Assembly (NCBI GenBank): GCA_035515475.1
Contig: DATJBF010000046.1
Location: forward strand, 917-64,916
Origin: Verrucomicrobiia bacterium
GTDB taxonomy: Bacteria > Verrucomicrobiota > Verrucomicrobiia > Palsa-1439
Length of the DNA stretch: 64,000 nucleotides
Direction of reading: 5' to 3'
This document shows, in pieces, positions 18,316 through 34,026 of the stretch; position 1 is the first letter of the stretch, and each line of letters begins with the position of its first letter. The position numbers were made by a program, and so were the translations under genes. The notes under the pieces are model-generated. The model saw nothing but the letters and a program-made list of their open reading frames with translations, did no database searches and was not told the origin of the DNA.

Positions 18316-19944
18316 ATGAGCGGTTCTCATTCCTGGAATTTATCCGCCCGTACGTTGTCGAGGAACTTCAACGGGCGATGGCTCGCCTGTCTCTGCGTGC
18401 TGCTCGGCGTTTCGGTCTCCGCAGCCGCGGTGGCGGACGATCAATTTCAAATGCCGCAGGTCAAGGAGCCGGCGATTCCCGCACGGGTTGTGAATCTGGC
18501 CGACGTCGGCGGAAGACCAGACGGGAAAACACTCAACACGGAAATCATCGCCCGGGCCGTTTCCTCGCTGGCCGAGAAGGGCGGCGGGAAACTCGTGGTT
18601 CCGGCAGGGATCTGGCGCACGGGCCCGATCCGCCTCCAAAGCAACCTCGAACTGCATTTGGAGGAGGGCGCATTGGTTCAATTCACGTCCGACTTCAAGC
18701 AGTATCCCGAAGTGACGTTCGACGTGAGGGGCGAGAAGGAAACGCGGTTGATGTCCCCGCTCTATGGCGAAAACCTGCAGAACGTCGCCATCACCGGGCG
18801 CGGCGTGTTCGACGGCGCGGGCGACGCGTGGCGGCCTGTAAAAAAAATCAAGATGACCGCGAGACAGTGGAAACAACTGCTGGCCTCGGGCGGCGTCCTG
18901 GAGGATAACGGCAACATCTGGTGGCCTTCGGAGGAAGCCCGGAAAGACCGGCGACCGGTTCTGTTGAAGCTGGTGAATTGCCGCCAGATCCTGCTGCAGG
19001 GCGTGACGTTCCAAAACTCGCCGATGTGGAATCTGAATCCAACCCTGTGCGCGGACGTCACGATTCGCGACGTGACCGTGCGCAACCCGTGGTATTCGCA
19101 GAACGGCGACGGCCTCGACCTCGAACATTGCCGCAAGGTCGTCGTGCGCAACTCGCGATTCGACGTGGGCGACGACGCCATCTGCCTCAAGTCGGGTGCC
19201 AACGAGAAAGGCCACCGCATCGGCGTGCCAACCGAAAACGTGCTGGTCGAGGATTGCATCGTCTATCACGGCCACGGCGGGTTCACCATCGGCAGCGAAA
19301 TGTCGGGCGGCGTGCGCAACATCCGCGTCAACAATTGCCTGTTCATGGGCACCGACGTCGGGTTGCGGTTCAAAAGCCAGCGGGGCCGCGGCGGAATCGT
19401 CGAGAAGATCTACATTTCCAACGTGCGGATGACGGACATCGCAACCGACGCAATCGGCTTCAACATGTATTACAGCGGCCAAGCCCCGCTCGACGAAAAC
19501 GGCGACCTGACGACGGGCGAATCAAAGGCGGTGCCGGTGAGTGAAGAGACGCCGCAATTTCGCGACATTTATTTCGACGACATCGTTTGCCGTGGCGCGC
19601 GCTCGGCTGTCGTGCTTGAAGGTCTTCCCGAAATGCCGATCCGCGGCGTCCATTTGCACAACGTCTCGATTACTGCTGAACGCGGCCTGGCCTGCATGGA
19701 TGCGGAAAACATAACGTGCGAGAACGTGGAGATCCTAAACAGCAAAGGTCCGGTGGTGAATCTGTTCGACACGAAGAACGCCGTGCTGGATCACCTGATT
19801 TTTCCGAAAGGCGCGGAGGCGGTCATCAAAGCCCAGGGCGACAAGAACGGTGGCATCGTCATCCAGAACACCGACCTCAAATCCGCCGCGAAAGATTTCA
19901 TCCTGACCGGTGGGGCCACCACAAACGCGTTTCAGATCAAATAA
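18316..19944 (+). CDS. Glycoside hydrolase family 28 (polygalacturonase-like), secreted
   Basis: Signal peptide, then GH28 catalytic motifs NPWYSQNGDGLDLEHC, RFDVGDDAICLKSG and GHGGFTIGSE, with parallel beta-helix repeats. Confidence 0.8.
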   Translation: MSGSHSWNLSARTLSRNFNGRWLACLCVLLGVSVSAAAVADDQFQMPQVKEPAIPARVVNLADVGGRPDGKTLNTEIIARAVSSLAEKGGGKLVVPAGIWRTGPIRLQSNLELHLEEGALVQFTSDFKQYPEVTFDVRGEKETRLMSPLYGENLQNVAITGRGVFDGAGDAWRPVKKIKMTARQWKQLLASGGVLEDNGNIWWPSEEARKDRRPVLLKLVNCRQILLQGVTFQNSPMWNLNPTLCADVTIRDVTVRNPWYSQNGDGLDLEHCRKVVVRNSRFDVGDDAICLKSGANEKGHRIGVPTENVLVEDCIVYHGHGGFTIGSEMSGGVRNIRVNNCLFMGTDVGLRFKSQRGRGGIVEKIYISNVRMTDIATDAIGFNMYYSGQAPLDENGDLTTGESKAVPVSEETPQFRDIYFDDIVCRGARSAVVLEGLPEMPIRGVHLHNVSITAERGLACMDAENITCENVEILNSKGPVVNLFDTKNAVLDHLIFPKGAEAVIKAQGDKNGGIVIQNTDLKSAAKDFILTGGATTNAFQIK

Positions 19945-20756
19945 TGTGGGAGGGGCCTCCGTGCCCCGACCGGATGTGCTTCGTGGCTGTCATCCTGCTT
20001 GTCCGCCGTAGCTTGAGCGAAGGCGGAAGCGAAGCGAAGGATCTCTGTCGTTGAAGCCGAGAGCGCAGAGTACTCACCACGAAGAGCACGAAGAGCACGG
20101 AGCTGTTGATTGCTGATAGACTTCTCCCTTCATCCCCTTGCGCTCGGCTTCCCGTACTTCTTACCTGGCTTCTCACGCACCACGGTCGTTTCGGCGCCGA
20201 GAAACCAGCCGCGGCGACGATTCAACATCTGGTGATATCTCTTGCGCCCCACGCGTCGCGCCTCCTGCTGGAGTCCGGAACGAATACGGCGCACTTCGGT
20301 GACAGCTTTGGGTTCTTTCCCGGTCTTCATAACCCCATGACTACTTGTGGTGTTTCCACGCGGATCGCCGGATACGGTTCAAAGTTTCCCCAAGCAAGCT
20401 CCAGGTATTCCCTCAAGAAGATTGTCATTTGAGAGCATGACCTTTCAGGTAATATATCATTTTGAAAACTGAACGCTTCACAATACGATTCCTGTATGGC
20501 ATGTTTCACCCGTGCCTACCCGCGTAAGGAAGGAAAAGACAAAGGTGGGCGCCCTGGAAGGAACCGCTATGATTGCGCTTCGTATCTTTGCGCAAGCGAC
20601 CGGGCACCGGATCGGGCCCAATGACCTTGGAGCCGTCGCACTTGGGAAGCCGGGAGCAAGTAAGAGCGGAACAACGAGAACAGCTAAACTCTCTGGGTGA
20701 AGAGCGCAGAAAGATTCTAGGAAACGCCGCTCAAGCACGATGACCAAGGAAATAGC

Positions 20757-22058
20757 ATGACAGCAGAAATAGCCGTTCTCAATAAGTCTGCCGTGGCTCT
20801 CGCGGCTGATAGTGCGGTGACCATTCAACACGAGATGGGCTACAAGGTTTACAATACGATGAACAAGTTGTTCGCACTGCATAAGCCGCGGCCGGTGGGC
20901 GTTATGATCTATGGCGGTGCAGAATTGATGGGGATTCCTTGGGAAACCATAATCAGGGTCTACCAAGCACGCTACTCCCAGGTAAAATTTAACCGTCTCG
21001 CTGCTTATGGGAAGCACTTTATTTCGTTTTTGGACCGCCGCAATCCGCTTTTCCCGCTTCGCAGTCAGCGTGAACACTTCGAGTCTATAGTCGAGGCACA
21101 TTTTACAGTAATTAGGCAACAGCTAGAGGATGTAGTCAAGGAGGAGATCGACAAGAAGGGTCAGGTTGATAATTCTCGCATCACGGTTCTCGCCGACGAA
21201 ATGGTTGCCTCTCATCTCCAAAAATGGCGGCAGTTCAAACGCATAAAAACGTTTCCCAGAAATCATCGGCGAAAAGTCCTGAAGAGACATGGGAGAGCCG
21301 TCTCCAAGACGCTGAAAAAGGTGTTTCAGAAAGTGCCGCTCTCCGGCAGGGCCAGACGGGGTCTAAGAAGTGTAGCGATTGATTTTTTCTGCAAGAACAG
21401 ATTCTCCAGTAATTCTTCCGGGGTGGTGATTGCGGGATTTGGAGAAAAGGATGTGTTCCCTGCGTTGGTGTCTTTTGAAGTGGAGTTGGTTGTCAATGAC
21501 CGACTCAAGTATCAAGAGGGCAGGAAACACCAAGTAGCCCTCGATGACCCGGCGTGTGTTATTCCGTTCGCGCAAGAAGATGTGGTTGTCACGCTGGTTG
21601 AAGGAGCCGACCCTTCATATCAAGAACTCGTCCGATCTTCATTTTCAGAAATACTCAGGCGCTATGCCGAGGGCATGGTCAAGGGCTTAAAACTGGCGGA
21701 CAAGAAACGCGAGCAAAGACTATTGGATGCCCTACTGAAATTCGGGATAAAGTTGGAAGAGGGGTTTACGGGGGAACTCAGGGTCTATAAAATTGAGAAT
21801 CACATAAGACATTTGTTGGATGTTGTCCGCATGCTTCCAAAAGACGAACTTGCGGCAATGGCTGAATCGTTAGTAAATCTAACATCCTTGAAGCGGAAGA
21901 TGTCCTTGGCGACAGAAACCGTTGGCGGCCCAATCGATGTAGCGGTCATTTCTAAGGGCGAGGGCATGATCTGGATCAAGCGAAAACATTATTTCACGAA
22001 GGACTTGAATCCGCAGTTCTTTCAGCGGTATCATAAGGAAAGCCAAACTGAGGTGTGA
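20757..22058 (+). CDS. Proteasome-beta-like (Thr1 Ntn-hydrolase) domain fused to about 230-aa unknown C-terminal domain; low-GC island gene
   Basis: The N-terminus MTAEIAVLNKSAVALAADSAVT...NKLFAL aligns residue-for-residue with the 20S beta-subunit TTIVALKYKDGVVLAADRRAT...KIFKI (Thr1, Asp17, Lys33). Codon usage is AT-rich and non-host. Confidence 0.6.
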   Translation: MTAEIAVLNKSAVALAADSAVTIQHEMGYKVYNTMNKLFALHKPRPVGVMIYGGAELMGIPWETIIRVYQARYSQVKFNRLAAYGKHFISFLDRRNPLFPLRSQREHFESIVEAHFTVIRQQLEDVVKEEIDKKGQVDNSRITVLADEMVASHLQKWRQFKRIKTFPRNHRRKVLKRHGRAVSKTLKKVFQKVPLSGRARRGLRSVAIDFFCKNRFSSNSSGVVIAGFGEKDVFPALVSFEVELVVNDRLKYQEGRKHQVALDDPACVIPFAQEDVVVTLVEGADPSYQELVRSSFSEILRRYAEGMVKGLKLADKKREQRLLDALLKFGIKLEEGFTGELRVYKIENHIRHLLDVVRMLPKDELAAMAESLVNLTSLKRKMSLATETVGGPIDVAVISKGEGMIWIKRKHYFTKDLNPQFFQRYHKESQTEV

Positions 22059-22249
22059 AGGTGAAAAGAGAACAGAAATCACATAAACCGTTGCGCTCGG
22101 TTGAGGAGTATCGAAGGCGGTTCTTCCCTCAGTCATCCCAAAAGAAGAAGGCCGAAATCGACCCAAAGCAGTTGGGCCTTATTCTCGCCGATGAAGTGTT
22201 TGAGAAAGCCAAACCCGTTCTCAAGGGAACCGTCTTGGCCCAAGCATAG
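22055..22249 (+). CDS. Small basic ORF (64 aa), GTG start overlapping upstream stop
   Basis: GTGA overlap with the preceding gene. Lys/Arg-rich. No homology recognised. Confidence 0.3.
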   Translation: MKVKREQKSHKPLRSVEEYRRRFFPQSSQKKKAEIDPKQLGLILADEVFEKAKPVLKGTVLAQA

Positions 22250-22370
22250 CGGTCTGCAATTCGCCCGTAGCGCATCGGGGAAGGTCGGCAGAGTCAACCC
22301 TCCACTCGACACGCTGAGCCGACGACAAGCTGGGACAGGGTGGCGGTCGGTATCGACGGAGATCAGCCCG

Positions 22371-22907
22371 TCACCACTTCACCTTGACGCTGCGTTTCTG
22401 GCCGAGGCGGTCGATGTAGGAAACTTCACCGTGGCGTTGGCCGTATTCGTGGAGTTCCTTGGTGATTTTCACGTCGAAGCAACAATACTCGGCAATCTCC
22501 ACGATCTTGCCTTCCTTCCACCATTTCAGCGCCATCATGCCGTCGGCAATCTTCGGCGCGTGGAGCGTCGCCTTGGCCAGCGCATCGAGTGACAGCCGGT
22601 GGCCGAGCTTCTGTTCGAGATCGGCCATCAGGTCGAGCGTCGGCACGGCGCGCAAATCGAGCGGCGAATAACCCGCCAGCACCTCGTAATCAAAATTCAG
22701 GATGTTGAATCCCACGACCCGGTCGGCCCGCATCAGTTCCTTGATGAGATCGTTGACCCGCGTCTCGTGGAAAATCCGGTACTGATTGTCGCCCGTGCTG
22801 AAGGTCACGCCGACCGACATCTTCATGTCGCGTTTGCGGTTCCAGCCGCCCACTTCGGCCGCGCTCTTCTGCGTTTCCAGGTCGAAATAAACGAGGTTTG
22901 ACATCAA
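22371..22907 (-). CDS. DEDDh-type 3'-5' exonuclease (DnaQ/Orn-like fold), island gene
   Basis: Exo motif I VYFDLETQ, motif II GFNILNFDYEVL, motif III AEYCCFDVKITKELHEY, in a 178-aa single-domain protein. Confidence 0.7.
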   Translation of the reverse strand: MMSNLVYFDLETQKSAAEVGGWNRKRDMKMSVGVTFSTGDNQYRIFHETRVNDLIKELMRADRVVGFNILNFDYEVLAGYSPLDLRAVPTLDLMADLEQKLGHRLSLDALAKATLHAPKIADGMMALKWWKEGKIVEIAEYCCFDVKITKELHEYGQRHGEVSYIDRLGQKRSVKVKW

Positions 22908-22908
22908 A

Positions 22909-23030
22909 AATCCGAAATCCGAATCTCGAAATTCGAAACAAATCCGAATGGCGGCAAATCCAAATTCCTGTCTTCGGAATTCGAGTTTCCTTCGGGCTTC
23001 GGGTTTCGGACTTCGGATTTCCTCTTCATT
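22909..23030. repeat. Imperfect 50-nt-arm palindrome built from TCCGAA/TTCGGA repeats at the right edge of the low-GC island
   Basis: AAATCCGAAATCCGAATCTCGAAATTCGAAACAAATCCGAA ... CTTCGGAATTCGAGTTTCCTTCGGGCTTCGGGTTTCGGACTTCGGATTTCC. Confidence 0.5.
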
Positions 23031-24030
23031 GTGCCACCCGAGGCAGGGTCAGGGTCCGCATCGTGTGCAGGCCGGGTTTCGCTTCGAGCAGCCGCGGAAT
23101 CATATTCACCAGGATGGCCGGCGTGGCAATGTCGCCCGGCGTGCCGCCGTGCAGCACCAGATGGAGCGGCGGGTCGCCGTCGATCTCGACCTCGTCGCGC
23201 GGCACGGGTGCGCCGACATACATCTGCAATTCCAGCCGCAACACTTCGTGTTTGTCGTGCCCGCCCCGCTCCGAGCGGGACCAGCCCCGCGCGATTTGCC
23301 GCACACCGGCCACGGCGTCGCGTTTGACGGTCAGGTACTCCGTCCGCACGTCCTTCACCGAGAGCACCGGCGCGATTTCTTCTTCGACCCGCTCCAAATC
23401 CCACCCGAGCGCGTCGGCAATAAACACCAGCGATTCCGTGAGACCGACGTGGCGGATTTTCTTTTGTTGCGCGAGCCGGTGGAATTCATCCTCGGTCAAA
23501 CCCGCTCCAACTTTGCGCTGCAACGCCTCCCGCCGGGTGCCGGCGTCCACGATGCGCACTACCCGCACCGCATCCACGCGCCGACACACGGCCGTCGCCA
23601 CGACCGCCAGCGTATCCATCACAAAACCGGGATTAACCCCGGTGCCGACCGCGGCCACTCCGTGCCGGGCGCACACCTGGTTCAATTTCTCCGCCAGTGC
23701 CCGATGGCGATAATAAGGGAACAAGGCTTCTTCGCACGACGTGACGCAATGCATGCCCGCACGCGCGATCTCGCCGATTTGCGCGGCGCATTCCGCAAAG
23801 TCCGACGTCGTGCAATGAACGACGGCGTCCGCCGCCGGGAGCTCTTGGCCGACGGCGATGCCGAGCTTGTGTTTCAAACCAAGCACCTCTCCGAGGTCGC
23901 GCCCGGCCAAATTGGGGTCGCGGTCTACCGCGCCGACCAATTCCAATCCCGATCGATCCAGAACCAGCCGTGCGGCCGCGCATCCGATCGCTCCCAGTCC
24001 ATATTGAATGACTCGAATGGGTTTGTTCAT
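23026..24030 (-). CDS. DapB-like NAD(P)-binding oxidoreductase (dihydrodipicolinate reductase / amine dehydrogenase family)
   Basis: Rossmann N-terminus IRVIQYGLGAIGCAAARLVLDRSGLELVGAVD with a DapB-like C-terminal domain. Start taken at MNKPIRV. Confidence 0.6.
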   Translation of the reverse strand: MNKPIRVIQYGLGAIGCAAARLVLDRSGLELVGAVDRDPNLAGRDLGEVLGLKHKLGIAVGQELPAADAVVHCTTSDFAECAAQIGEIARAGMHCVTSCEEALFPYYRHRALAEKLNQVCARHGVAAVGTGVNPGFVMDTLAVVATAVCRRVDAVRVVRIVDAGTRREALQRKVGAGLTEDEFHRLAQQKKIRHVGLTESLVFIADALGWDLERVEEEIAPVLSVKDVRTEYLTVKRDAVAGVRQIARGWSRSERGGHDKHEVLRLELQMYVGAPVPRDEVEIDGDPPLHLVLHGGTPGDIATPAILVNMIPRLLEAKPGLHTMRTLTLPRVAQ

Positions 24031-24194
24031 GATGGCGCGTCGCATCGGCTCTTGTATCGCCAATGGGGCGGTGCTTCAACGAAAAAGCCGGGCGGCGACT
24101 GTAGCCGAAACTCGGCAGTTGCCGCGAGCAGCCCCGACAAGATCGGGGTGAACCTCGCGGCTACAATCCGGCAGCAGCGTCAAGACGGATCATT

Positions 24195-32391: not shown

Positions 32392-33216
32392 TCAGTCTAG
32401 CAAAGCAACGATTTCTTCCAAGCTCCAAACGTGATCGGCAACGCCCGCTTCCATTGCTGGCGTCACACGCAGACTCTGGTGTATGCGTGCGTAGTTGTAG
32501 TGCATGTAGTGGAGCGCAATCGCGTGTTCCAGCATAGTGACTTTCTTTGAGAAGGCGTTGGTTAGCCGCGTGAATCGGCGCATCTGCATCCGCATCGTCA
32601 GGTTTTGGCGCTCGGTGTAGCTGGTTGAGATGTGCGCGGGGTCGGGGTCGCCGGAGACTCGCAGGGTCGTGCAACCAGTGCATTGTGGCGGGCTGTAATG
32701 GTGCTCTGTGCCCGTTGGGTTGCCGTACATCTTGACCAGCATGGCGTAATCAATCTCACTGCCGAAAGCATCCTCGACGGCTGACAGATAAGCCTTGTGG
32801 CCGTCAGTAGTGAGTTGCACACGATTCACAAGGCGGCTTTTGAGATCGTGGATGAAGTGATAGGCGGCGCCCGCATCGCGGCTACTGACCAGCCAGCAAG
32901 GAACGAGTTTTGTGTCAGCATCCAAGGCGACCCATGTCCACACGTCGCCATAGCCCCACTTGCCTTTTAATTCATCGGGCAGGTTGCGCTCCTTCGCGTG
33001 GCAATAAGTCCAGATTTCGTCACACTGAATCTTGGTGGACGTTAGGCCCCGCAGGTGTTCATCTTGATACTCGGCGCAAGCCCGGCCCAGATCGGCCAGC
33101 AGCTTGGCAACGGTGTTCTGTGCTGCCCCTGTCATGCGCTGGACGGCCCGCATCGAGTTGCCTTCGACCAGTGCGGCAACGATTGCGACTCGTTTATCTG
33201 TACTGAGCTTGTTCAT
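32392..33216 (-). CDS. DDE transposase, IS1595/IS1-related
   Basis: N-terminal HTH, IQCDEIWTYCHAK (like the IS1595 VEvDETY motif), TDGHKAY, and a C-terminal TERQNLTMRMQMRRFTRLTNAFSKKVTMLEHAIALHYMHYNYARIH that resembles the IS1 InsB tail. Confidence 0.8.
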   Translation of the reverse strand: MNKLSTDKRVAIVAALVEGNSMRAVQRMTGAAQNTVAKLLADLGRACAEYQDEHLRGLTSTKIQCDEIWTYCHAKERNLPDELKGKWGYGDVWTWVALDADTKLVPCWLVSSRDAGAAYHFIHDLKSRLVNRVQLTTDGHKAYLSAVEDAFGSEIDYAMLVKMYGNPTGTEHHYSPPQCTGCTTLRVSGDPDPAHISTSYTERQNLTMRMQMRRFTRLTNAFSKKVTMLEHAIALHYMHYNYARIHQSLRVTPAMEAGVADHVWSLEEIVALLD

Positions 33217-33319
33217 AGATCAAAGGTAGCAGCTAATGCTTGAGCGGTCAAGCATAAAATGCATAACAATTCTTCAGCTTTGAACAAGCGCGGAAGCCGC
33301 GCTCGGAGGGGCTTGGAGT

Positions 33320-33631
33320 CTAGGTTAAGACCTGATCGAAGGCTTGCTCTAACTGACTCTTACGAATTCTGGATGCGGAGCCGAAGCGAGTACGGGCCGA
33401 TTCAAATACACGTTCCGCCTTCTTCACAAGCACGCGAAAACCCACTTGTGCAATGTTGTGCTTATTGAAGTTTAGGATGCGGAAACCAGTGGGCATACCG
33501 GTGAATATGCCGATTTCCATGAGCAACACATCGTCAATCTCTTCTACGATTGACGGCTCTCCCGTTTTAAATGTGACATAATAAATATCATCTTCCTGAT
33601 CGTAGTGCTCAGAGAAGTCGATGTTCATTAT
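33320..33631 (-). CDS. DUF2283-like small protein (putative antitoxin-like), low-GC cargo
   Basis: MNIDFSEHYDQEDDIYYVTFKTGEPSIVEEIDDVLLMEIGIFTGMPTGFRILNF matches the DUF2283 Y-D-x-E-x-D-x-L-Y...G-I-E-I-L pattern. Confidence 0.45.
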   Translation of the reverse strand: MMNIDFSEHYDQEDDIYYVTFKTGEPSIVEEIDDVLLMEIGIFTGMPTGFRILNFNKHNIAQVGFRVLVKKAERVFESARTRFGSASRIRKSQLEQAFDQVLT

Positions 33632-33657
33632 TCCTTTTTGGCCCTTCATTATCATCC

Positions 33658-34026
33658 TCATGCGGGTTTGAATTCCTTCCCATCTTTCGGCTTCACAACC
33701 GGATAAACGGTACAAATCCGCTTTCTGTTTTCATCAATTACGACAGCAAAATATACACCATCGTTGAACGTTGTCGATATGGTCGGAGCTATCATTATGG
33801 TGCTGAACCGCTTGTAATACATGAACTGTGTCGGCTCATGCTTGTGGTGTCGTACCACATCTGGATTGATCAACGTCGTAGGAATTTTCTCCCCATTGAG
33901 AGGGTAATAATACCTCTCTGGCTCTGAACAGATCTCATCCCACTTGTTCTTGGAGAGCGTAACGCTACCATGATATTTCGTTGGGAAAGTTACTTTCCCG
34001 TCTGCTCCAAATGCGATTCCTGCCAC
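33658..34026 (-). CDS. Hypothetical protein, upstream partner of the DUF2283-like gene (low GC)
   Basis: 122-aa ORF overlapping the downstream gene, with AT-rich codon usage. Function unknown. Confidence 0.35.
   Translation of the reverse strand: MAGIAFGADGKVTFPTKYHGSVTLSKNKWDEICSEPERYYYPLNGEKIPTTLINPDVVRHHKHEPTQFMYYKRFSTIMIAPTISTTFNDGVYFAVVIDENRKRICTVYPVVKPKDGKEFKPA

Follow-up and report, generated by a model that had tools for sequence, protein, structure and literature searches.

Gene content and composition of the locus

The stretch of DNA analyzed here, referred to as the window, spans 64,000 nucleotides of a contig from a Verrucomicrobiia bacterium. Family searches identified a GH28 gene on the left flank of the locus and a DapB/DAP_DH-like gene (DapB_N/DAP_DH_C; 23026-24063, reverse strand) on the right, in agreement with the flanks named in a preliminary description of this DNA. 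Between them, the forward strand carries a gene for a PMI-4-type proteasome homolog of 433 aa (20757..22058; NCBI HUI06795.1), with a single Ntn (Thr1) hydrolase fold and helical insertions, followed by a small partner gene encoding 62 aa (22061..22249; NCBI VL486_07300). A gene for a DEDDy-type 3'-5' exonuclease-like protein of 177 aa (22371..22904) lies on the reverse strand, convergent with these two genes and 312 nt from the PMI-4 gene. Upstream of the PMI-4 gene is a spacer of 812 nt (19945..20756) with an intermediate GC content (0.554), in which none of the ORFs had a Pfam match. This spacer contains a promoter-like site on the forward strand (20462-20489) and presumably carries the promoter of the two-gene cassette. 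An Rfam scan of positions 19500-23500 returned chance-level matches only, none of them credible.

The PMI-4 gene has a GC content of 0.486, against a mean of 0.604 for the window (sd 0.033, 1300-nt windows), and is among its two lowest-GC stretches. The GC content at third codon positions (GC3) was 0.555 for PMI-4 and 0.587 for the small ORF, compared to 0.798 for the exonuclease and 0.76-0.82 for host genes. The island of atypical composition consists of PMI-4 and the small ORF only. The GC dip that had been described as an island of about 3 kb is thus real, but its extent was overstated, as the exonuclease gene has a host-like GC3. The borders of this island had also been described as repeat-rich, while the only notable repeat we found is a 42-nt imperfect inverted repeat (22908-23020), which lies beyond the exonuclease gene and occurs a single time in the window. 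A repeat scan detected no repeats above chance bracketing the cassette; an inverted pair of 16 nt at 20563/22238 is no more than would be expected by chance.

The large protein is a member of the PMI-4 family

In 2021, Fuchs, Alva and Lupas used bioinformatics to define PMI-4 (Proteasome homolog with Multiple Insertions, variant 4), which with 501 sequences was among the largest families in their catalog of proteasome homologs (PMC8665760). The 433-aa protein belongs to this family: it shares 44% identity with the PMI-4 representative HDY66466.1 over 99% coverage (E 3.1e-117), and also matches phrog_5990. It has the insertion sites of PMI-4 (after H1/H2, and between H3 and H4), lacks a propeptide as PMI-4 does (PMC8665760), and shows no difference that would set it apart from the other members. 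The family, which now counts more than 7000 cluster representatives, had therefore already been cataloged, contrary to the initial impression that nothing of this composition had been described. The closest homolog of the window protein is 56% identical.

The start codon at 20757 (ATG) is the earliest one downstream of an in-frame stop, which places a threonine directly after the methionine and leaves no room for a propeptide. Across 36 diverse homologs, M1, T2, and D18 were invariant, as were K30 and K37 (29 and 36 when counted without the methionine), G48, and G53. Of the three catalytic residues that had been placed in register with those of 20S beta subunits, Thr1 and Asp17 are invariant at these positions, while the invariant lysines fall at 29 and 36 rather than exactly at 33. 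K37 lies in the sequence NKLF, which we take to resemble the KKLF that surrounds Lys33 in the archaeal beta subunit, and G48 and G53 are the candidate equivalents of Gly47. Residues 20-43, which span both candidate analogs of Lys33, were modeled with a pLDDT below 50.

The structure model has the four-layer alpha-beta-beta-alpha architecture of proteasome beta subunits and can be superposed on those of the 20S particle. Together with the invariant M1, T2, and D18, this agrees with the assignment of the protein as an Ntn, proteasome-like Thr1 hydrolase, and settles the structural check proposed for it in favor of an Ntn fold. In contrast, the fusion to an additional 230-aa domain that had been proposed is not seen. 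The model instead predicts a single fold with two helical insertions, one after H1/H2 (approximately residues 95-212; helices at 101-212, between the H1/H2 pair and the next sheet) and one between H3 and H4 (approximately 286-383; helices at 286-383, between strands 267-272 and 393-399), and the proteasome motif GGPIDVAVISKGxG is found in the C-terminal strands. As modeled, PMI-4 is shown to have a complete proteasome-beta Ntn fold that lacks a propeptide and carries insertions at both the ring and the ring-ring contact sites.

Searches with the sequence itself gave less. Neither PMI-4 nor the small ORF had a meaningful match in Pfam, NCBIfam, or PADLOC, a single-sequence search of the PDB with PMI-4 gave no match, and a Foldseek search against BFVD gave no useful one. 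A profile search of the PDB did find a sub-threshold proteasome-beta match at the expected C-terminal strand, and an hhalign comparison with an archaeal beta sequence aligned only the 20 C-terminal residues. Matches of the helical insertion to cullins in the PDB profile search (E ~0.007) were regarded as compositional or coiled-coil noise.

A small gene accompanies PMI-4

Fuchs et al. found neither an informative genomic context nor a co-occurring AAA+ partner for PMI-4 (PMC8665760). The 62-aa ORF directly downstream of the PMI-4 gene is a conserved small partner that was previously overlooked. It encodes 62 aa when read from the GTG at 22061, which has a GAGG 7 nt upstream, or 64 aa from the GTG at 22055, which overlaps the PMI-4 stop codon as GTGA. 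As a rule, the start codon of the partner gene at the various loci overlaps the stop codon of PMI-4 or lies right next to it; this arrangement makes translational coupling likely, and the small partner is, judging from the sequence, probably coupled to PMI-4 in this way.

A same-strand small ORF was present directly 3' of PMI-4 at 75 of 79 genomic and 82 of 83 viral loci. As 42% of random positions also met the criteria for a downstream ORF, its presence is weak evidence, and we relied on a profile test instead. The partner profile matched at 74 of 80 genomic PMI-4 loci, in each case in the segment immediately downstream, and had no matches among 14,561 segments elsewhere. Applied to the viral loci, the profile built from genomic loci matched at 1 of 83. 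Position and size alone are kept there; in most phage loci, the partner sequence is beyond profile recognition. In a reciprocal look-up, all 3 of 3 small proteins were encoded directly after PMI-4. Clustering of 1059 flanking ORFs revealed no other conserved neighbors, with PMI-4 alone being common to the loci.

The small protein begins with a basic N-terminal region, contains the conserved motif S..E[FY]..[KR][FY][FY]P, and ends in a long helix; an AF2 model places helices at residues 14-21 and 35-61. The aromatic-aromatic-Pro part of the motif is nearly invariant within an otherwise fast-evolving sequence, but many of the partners encoded by phages have it in weak form or not at all. No DNA-binding fold could be recognized in the AF2 model or by Pfam. 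Stand-alone proteins of 50-73 aa related to the partner formed 371 clusters, and a Rosetta-stone search returned no informative fusion. Two proteins of about 155 aa match the partner at their C-terminus, which we suspect reflects mis-called start codons.

The cassette is scattered and carried by mobile elements

PMI-4 is patchily distributed over Bacteria, Archaea, phages, and plasmids, and its members are still about 40% identical between the prokaryotic domains. In 2021, the family was likewise reported to be widespread, with members in PVC bacteria and Euryarchaeota (PMC8665760). The low GC3 of the PMI-4 gene (0.555, compared to about 0.8 for host genes), the 56% identity to its nearest homolog, and the scattered distribution of the family indicate that it was acquired horizontally, as had been proposed for the large protein.

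Homologs of PMI-4 were found in 13 phage or satellite records, on 10 plasmids, and on 147 IMG/VR contigs. The two-gene cassette occurs in temperate phages, in satellite prophages of Streptococcus, and on plasmids, with bearers that include elements of Enterococcus faecium, Streptococcus, Morganella, and Proteus. In phages, it is located between the antiterminator Q and the lysis genes, beside CI-type repressors, or after the endolysin gene, and Q-like antiterminators (8), CI-like and other repressors (5-7), and holins (3) recur among its neighbors. The Streptococcus satellites carry PMI-4 homologs of 401 aa (45.3 kDa) at the ends of the element. Carriage by temperate phages, satellites, and plasmids is best explained if the cassette is an accessory, moron-like module.

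At the PMI-4 loci, the families of the nearest neighbors were heterogeneous. Among 142 nearest neighbors (raw counts), approximately 3-6 matched restriction-modification methylases or mad2 and 2 matched transposases, while the remainder were diverse housekeeping genes. As the chromosomal neighbors are mostly housekeeping genes, an association with defense islands is not demonstrated. A search of PADLOC-DB 2.0 (E up to 0.1) returned no match for PMI-4, the small partner, or the exonuclease, which answers the suggestion to look for the protease and the nuclease in a database of defense systems.

Relation to known proteases and a proposed role for the cassette

We consider it likely that the locus represents a compact, horizontally acquired cassette of two genes, PMI-4 and a probably coupled 62-aa partner, which is located between resident genes and does not include the exonuclease. 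The nearly obligatory small partner gives PMI-4 a genomic context, and this context is new here, as is the finding that temperate phages, satellite prophages, and plasmids carry it at accessory positions. PMI-4 can thereby be recast as a testable, regulated protease cassette for inter-genome conflict or element maintenance.

Several steps of its function can be envisioned. Methionine aminopeptidase would expose Thr1, which would serve as nucleophile in the hydrolysis of peptide bonds. The insertions may take the place of the self-compartmentalizing ring and its AAA+ partner in controlling access to the active site. The small protein might be largely unstructured on its own and fold onto PMI-4, serving as its dedicated regulator. 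The most plausible form of this is a pseudo-substrate inhibitor that offers the active site its aromatic-aromatic-Pro motif; the small protein could also be a substrate of PMI-4. Any assignment of the partner as inhibitor, substrate, or adaptor is purely inferential.

PMI-4 shares the positions of Thr1 and Asp17 with the 20S beta subunit, HslV, Anbu, and BPH (MEROPS T1), as well as the GGxIDVAVIxxxG strand motif near the C-terminus. Unlike these T1 proteases, it contains about 230 extra residues, with helical insertions at the ring-contact sites, and lacks a propeptide, an alpha subunit, and an AAA+ unfoldase (the last two judged from the neighbors at 80 genomic loci); furthermore, it is mobile and patchy rather than a core gene. 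The shared fold and catalytic residues, along with the many chromosomal copies amid housekeeping genes, would suit a housekeeping quality-control protease in the manner of HslV, Anbu, or BPH, next to which the small ORF would be incidental. A general-purpose role is also the interpretation given in a preprint on Rrp, a possible relative discussed below. We consider this reading unlikely, given that the family is patchy and about 40% identical across both prokaryotic domains, that its gene is compositionally foreign in this window, and that phages, satellites, and plasmids carry it at moron positions. Moreover, no AAA+ gene or other neighbor is conserved (80 genomic loci; PMC8665760) except the small partner, which is itself conserved at 74 of 80 loci, and the contact sites needed for ring formation are filled by insertions (model; PMC8665760). 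Rather, we infer that the cassette serves inter-genome conflict or element maintenance instead of housekeeping proteolysis.

Connectase (MJ0548/DUF2121) is a monomeric proteasome homolog that ligates proteins. If PMI-4 were likewise a sequence-specific transpeptidase or ligase, its partner would be the substrate and the aromatic-aromatic-Pro motif the recognition site, which would fit the presence of one short, near-invariant motif within a fast-evolving protein. This, too, seems improbable. The insertions of PMI-4 are not at the S3/S4 site of the Connectase insertion, H1 and H2 are present in PMI-4 and missing in Connectase, and in many partners from phages the motif is absent or only weakly kept. 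Connectase is also limited to methanogens, whereas PMI-4 is widespread and mobile, and a Pfam-type family search gave no Connectase match for the window protein. Rrp, if it is a PMI-4 protein, would further argue against ligation, as it is described as a hydrolase of relaxed specificity.

Rrp (SP_1145) of Streptococcus pneumoniae TIGR4 is, according to a 2026 preprint, a 44.8-kDa proteasome-beta/Anbu-like Ntn protease with additional extended domains; its gene lies on an element resembling a phage satellite, and structurally related proteins occur in phages (10.64898/2026.08.10.744006). There, it is reported to cleave with relaxed specificity, to be detected in purified ribosomes, and to slow the growth of Escherichia coli when expressed alone, and it is interpreted as a ribosome-rescue protease. 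We liken Rrp to PMI-4 by description and size only (about 45 kDa, as for the 401-aa PMI-4 of Streptococcus satellites). SP_1145 was not a member of the 90%-identity clusters to which four PMI-4 proteins from Firmicutes and enterobacteria belong, and Rrp could instead belong to the Firmicute-specific clusters of proteasome homologs, FC1-FC5. The neighboring locus tags SP_1144 and SP_1146 were not found in the preprint, and the sections consulted make no mention of a small partner gene (10.64898/2026.08.10.744006). Studies that express the protease alone, as with Rrp if it is of the same family, may miss its natural regulator.

In its layout, the cassette resembles two-gene toxin-antitoxin modules, including those of type II, and abortive-infection modules, which combine an enzyme and a small, fast-evolving protein in a compact operon. 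Like the genes of such modules, PMI-4 and its partner are adjacent and travel together, with an overlapping or abutting start that suggests translational coupling, and the cassette is foreign in composition, scattered, and found at moron positions of temperate phages and satellites. It differs from toxin-antitoxin modules in that the partner has no recognizable DNA-binding fold, and no PADLOC model matches. The slower growth of E. coli upon expression of Rrp alone would be an indirect hint at toxicity if Rrp is a PMI-4 protein. The role in conflict that had been suggested for the protease and nuclease together does not hold for that pair, but is still plausible for PMI-4 and its 62-aa partner. 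A bolder version, which we put forward as a speculation with a low chance of being correct, is that the cassette represents a class of mobile conflict modules not recognized before, in which a Thr1 protease of relaxed specificity is restrained by a pseudo-substrate mini-protein with an uncleavable aromatic-aromatic-Pro, and is freed upon phage infection or loss of the element. If so, the freed protease would lead to abortive infection, superinfection exclusion, or addiction, possibly by targeting ribosome-associated or nascent proteins, as reported for Rrp. It would then be the first proteasome-family effector in a prokaryotic immune or addiction system.

The neighboring exonuclease is a resident gene

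The exonuclease ORF (22371..22907, reverse strand) encodes 178 aa, although ATG 22904 is the likely start, giving 177 aa. A stand-alone 178-aa exonuclease of the DEDDh type had been reported at this position; the ORF was correctly recognized, but its third motif reads EYCCFD (Y-x3-D) and lacks the H-x4-D of Exo III, which makes it a DEDDy-type protein. It matches the RNase_H_2 (Pfam, 4.5e-6), PolB-exo, and PolA-exo families, as well as PHROG families of DNA polymerase exonucleases (2e-10), while a PDB sequence search gave no match. Thousands of homologs exist, and the best 120 are mostly 76-93% identical; the named ones among these 120 are from Verrucomicrobia.

The PHROG matches of the exonuclease, and the fact that PMI-4 is itself a PHROG family, raise the question of whether the locus is a prophage remnant with ordinary replication genes, in which a proofreading exonuclease of a DNA polymerase is accompanied by an accessory protein. 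This is very improbable, as the roughly 10 kb to the left and to the right contain no further phage gene, and the genes found there encode RND transporters, GH28, MFS, and a methyltransferase. The exonuclease is a conserved verrucomicrobial gene of host composition, no tRNA gene was found in the window, and neither an integrase (among the genes examined) nor att-like repeats were found around the cassette.

The exonuclease was absent from all other PMI-4 loci retrieved (tblastn, E up to 10), which amount to about 170 loci and 2.2 Mb and comprise 80 genomic loci, 83 viral or phage loci, and a few from plasmids and metagenomes. The proposal that hydrolase and exonuclease form a protease-plus-nuclease defense system on one acquired islet, which draws on their convergent adjacency (312 nt apart) and the foreign composition of the hydrolase, can in effect be set aside, given this failure of co-conservation, which the preliminary description had itself named as a refutation, the host-like GC3 of the exonuclease (0.798), the lack of a PADLOC match for either protein, and the exonuclease-DapB/DAP_DH-like synteny kept in relatives without PMI-4. 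For this window, the protease-nuclease system almost certainly does not exist, and the sequence comparisons identify the exonuclease as an ordinary resident gene that is unconnected with PMI-4. It is instead associated with the DapB/DAP_DH-like gene: in two relatives with no PMI-4 within 6 kb, an exonuclease 83-85% identical to the one in the window is encoded directly downstream of the same DapB/DAP_DH-like gene.

Assignment and fold of the proteasome-like protein

The 433-aa ORF at 20757-22058 (+) opens with an ATG (20757), the first start past an in-frame stop, with AAGGAAA ahead of it. [quoted passage not shown] Among the 22 new proteasome homologues described by Fuchs, Alva, and Lupas in 2021 is PMI-4 (Proteasome homolog with Multiple Insertions, variant 4), characterized by insertions after H1/H2 and between H3 and H4, the lack of a propeptide, and a broad distribution (PMC8665760). 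The published PMI-4 representative, HDY66466.1, matched the window protein with an E-value of 3e-117, 44% identity, and 99% coverage. By this similarity, the window protein is assigned to PMI-4 as a new member of a family already catalogued without an assigned function. The family corresponds to phrog_5990, annotated as unknown function, and a literature look-up under the name PMI-4 found no functional work after the 2021 paper.

In the AlphaFold model (pLDDT 76), strands and helices follow one another as in a proteasome beta subunit, except where helical insertions intervene at about residues 95-212 and 286-383. Because this order is kept around the insertions, the protein is predicted to be one Ntn fold carrying two insertions. 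The proteasome-like fold proposed in the preliminary description was thereby confirmed; its fusion of an N-terminal Ntn module to an unknown domain was replaced by a single fold interrupted by helices. The insertions fall at ring-contact sites, and Fuchs et al. argued that insertions at these two sites would clash with ring and double-ring assembly (PMC8665760).

Residues of catalytic type are conserved: M1, T2, D18, S19, K30, K37, G48, and G53 were invariant or nearly so in 36 diverse members, as were the strand SGxVIAGFGE and the segment ETVGGPIDVAxISKGxGxxWIKRKHYF. Thr1 and Asp17 had been identified correctly, but the lysine placed at 33 corresponds to mature position 36 (in NKLF) or 29. 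Near the C-terminus, GGPIDVAVISKGxG aligned to GGMIDVAVITRKDG of the archaeal subunit. No propeptide is present. Some database homologues (P0003, P0007, and P0104) carry extensions of 10-32 residues ahead of the invariant MTAEI (columns 1-32 of the homologue alignment); as all other members begin exactly at Met-Thr, the extensions probably reflect wrongly called starts, not propeptides.

A small protein accompanies PMI-4

Directly after the 433-aa gene lies a small ORF on the same strand, starting at a GTG at 22055 or 22061 and ending at 22249. Same-strand ORFs of about 50-70 aa, starting a few bases from the PMI-4 stop codon and often overlapping it, were found at 75 of 79 genomic and 82 of 83 viral loci. 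With criteria this permissive, 42% of random positions also have such an ORF, and sequence conservation was therefore tested with a profile, built from database proteins and the window small-ORF sequence (threshold E up to 0.1). The profile matched 74 of the 80 genomic PMI-4 loci, each time in the segment directly 3' of PMI-4, with no match among the remaining 14,561 six-frame segments. In the reverse look-up, all three independently queried small proteins directly followed a verified PMI-4 gene. These matches argue that the small ORF is an almost obligatory partner of PMI-4.

An exhaustive profile search yielded 371 small-protein clusters, nearly all stand-alone and of 50-73 aa, with no informative fusion. 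At its N-terminus, the small protein is basic and probably disordered. A short helix follows with the motif S..E[FY]..[KR][FY][FY]P, the proline of which is kept in more than 90% of sequences, and the third part is a long amphipathic helix. Across PMI-4 loci, no other conserved neighbor was found, nor an AAA+ partner. Fuchs et al. found no informative genomic context for PMI-4 (PMC8665760), for which the frequent non-annotation of small ORFs may be the reason.

The convergent exonuclease is a resident gene

The preliminary description had paired the proteasome-like protein with a convergent exonuclease (22371-22904/22907 (-); 177 or 178 aa, depending on the start chosen) as a protease-nuclease defense system on a low-GC island flanked by GH28 (left) and DapB_N/DAP_DH_C (right) genes. 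The dip in GC is real, but narrower than claimed: GC3 was 0.555 for the 433-aa gene and 0.587 for the small ORF, against 0.76-0.82 for resident genes, while the exonuclease gene (0.798) is indistinguishable from the host in composition. The 812-nt upstream spacer is intermediate (GC 0.554); a 66-aa basic ORF called there publicly (20130-20330 (-)) had no family match, and whether it is coding is doubtful. The gene arrangement is identical in three public contigs of the same Verrucomicrobiae MAG, with VL486_07295 and VL486_07300 annotated as hypothetical proteins. There were no tRNA genes within the window, an integrase was absent from the genes examined near the cassette, and its borders are marked by no bracketing repeat above chance.

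The exonuclease has homologues in the thousands. The best 120 listed were mostly 76-93% identical and nearly all 177 aa long (a few 180-246 aa), and the named organisms among them were Verrucomicrobia; in contrast, the closest PMI-4 homologue was only 56% identical. In two relatives, with exonucleases 83-85% identical, the gene lies immediately 3' of or overlaps the same DapB_N/DAP_DH_C gene, with no PMI-4 gene within 6 kb. Conversely, tblastn (E up to 10) detected no exonuclease homologue in the other PMI-4 loci, which comprised 80 from genomes, 83 from viruses or phages, and several from plasmids or metagenomes. The exonuclease is thus a resident gene, and its motif III (Y-x3-D) makes it DEDDy rather than DEDDh. 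The original observation was partly right; its reading as a protease-nuclease system was wrong, as the two genes are not co-conserved across the loci searched.

In Verrucomicrobia, the exonuclease-like gene and the DapB_N/DAP_DH_C gene (22371-24063 in the window) are tightly coupled as a conserved pair. The product of the latter is 2,4-diaminopentanoate dehydrogenase-like, and the pairing suggests a functional association of an amino-acid dehydrogenase-like enzyme with a nuclease-fold protein. In the window, the two genes are separated by an AT-rich spacer of 121 nt (22905-23025; GC 0.455). What had been described as repeat-rich DNA on the right is one imperfect 42-nt inverted repeat in this spacer, outside the foreign segment (arms 22908-22949 and 22979-23020, 76% complementary) and unique in the window. 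Since relatives (L084-L087) have the two genes directly adjoining or sharing 4 nt, this spacer resembles either a small insertion or a hairpin of the attenuator or terminator type.

A second stretch of low GC (about 0.48, level with the PMI-4 gene) lies at 32392-34026. It encodes an IS1/IS240-like DDE transposase (32392-33216 (-)) and two overlapping small ORFs (33320-33715 (-) and 33658-34026 (-)), the first with a weak DUF2283 match, and may be a second mobile insertion with a toxin-antitoxin-like pair.

PMI-4 cassettes are carried by mobile elements

The lasting result is a conserved cassette of PMI-4 and a mini-protein, carried by phages, satellites, and plasmids. Deposited genomes of 13 phages or satellites contain it, as do 10 plasmids and at least 147 contigs of IMG/VR. 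In annotated phages, its positions are accessory. In a Providencia phage, it separates antiterminator Q/Dam from the holin-lysozyme genes, and Stenotrophomonas phages have it next to their holin-lysozyme genes. In Streptococcus, phages Javan84 and Javan85 carry it 3' of the endolysin, where the prophage ends, and satellite prophages have it terminally or nearly so. A plasmid of Enterococcus faecium also carries it, with an overlapping 56-aa ORF. Families that recurred among 127 neighbors from IMG/VR loci were Q-like antiterminators, CI-type and other repressors, and holins. Chromosomal copies sit amid unrelated housekeeping genes, plus a few restriction-modification methylases and transposases.

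Such cassettes are common in clinically relevant bacteria (e.g., E. faecium plasmid NZ_CP059741.1 and Providencia phage MW358929.1). The Enterococcus faecium/durans/mundtii version occurs on 975 contigs, and the enterobacterial version is present in Morganella morganii and Proteus mirabilis genomes. Among the few defense-candidate neighbors is a trypsin-like peptidase gene directly 3' of the cassette in a Melioribacter MAG (L004, 1971-2879), which matches PDC-S45, a candidate system in PADLOC (E 3.5e-27).

A possible mode of action

Methionine aminopeptidase would expose Thr1 as the nucleophile of a peptidase, and the small partner could bind PMI-4 as a regulator or as a substrate. An attractive specific guess is a pseudo-substrate role, in which proline comes after a hydrophobic P1. 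The cassette may serve mobile elements in conflict or in maintenance.

A 2026 preprint (10.64898/2026.08.10.744006) describes Rrp (SP_1145) of S. pneumoniae, an Ntn protease of 44.8 kDa that resembles proteasome beta, has extra domains, and is encoded on a satellite-like element. Rrp was reported there to cleave after hydrophobic residues with relaxed specificity, to be found in purified ribosomes, and to slow growth when expressed alone in E. coli. As Streptococcus satellites encode PMI-4 homologues of 401 aa (45.3 kDa), Rrp is probably a PMI-4 protein, judged by description and size.
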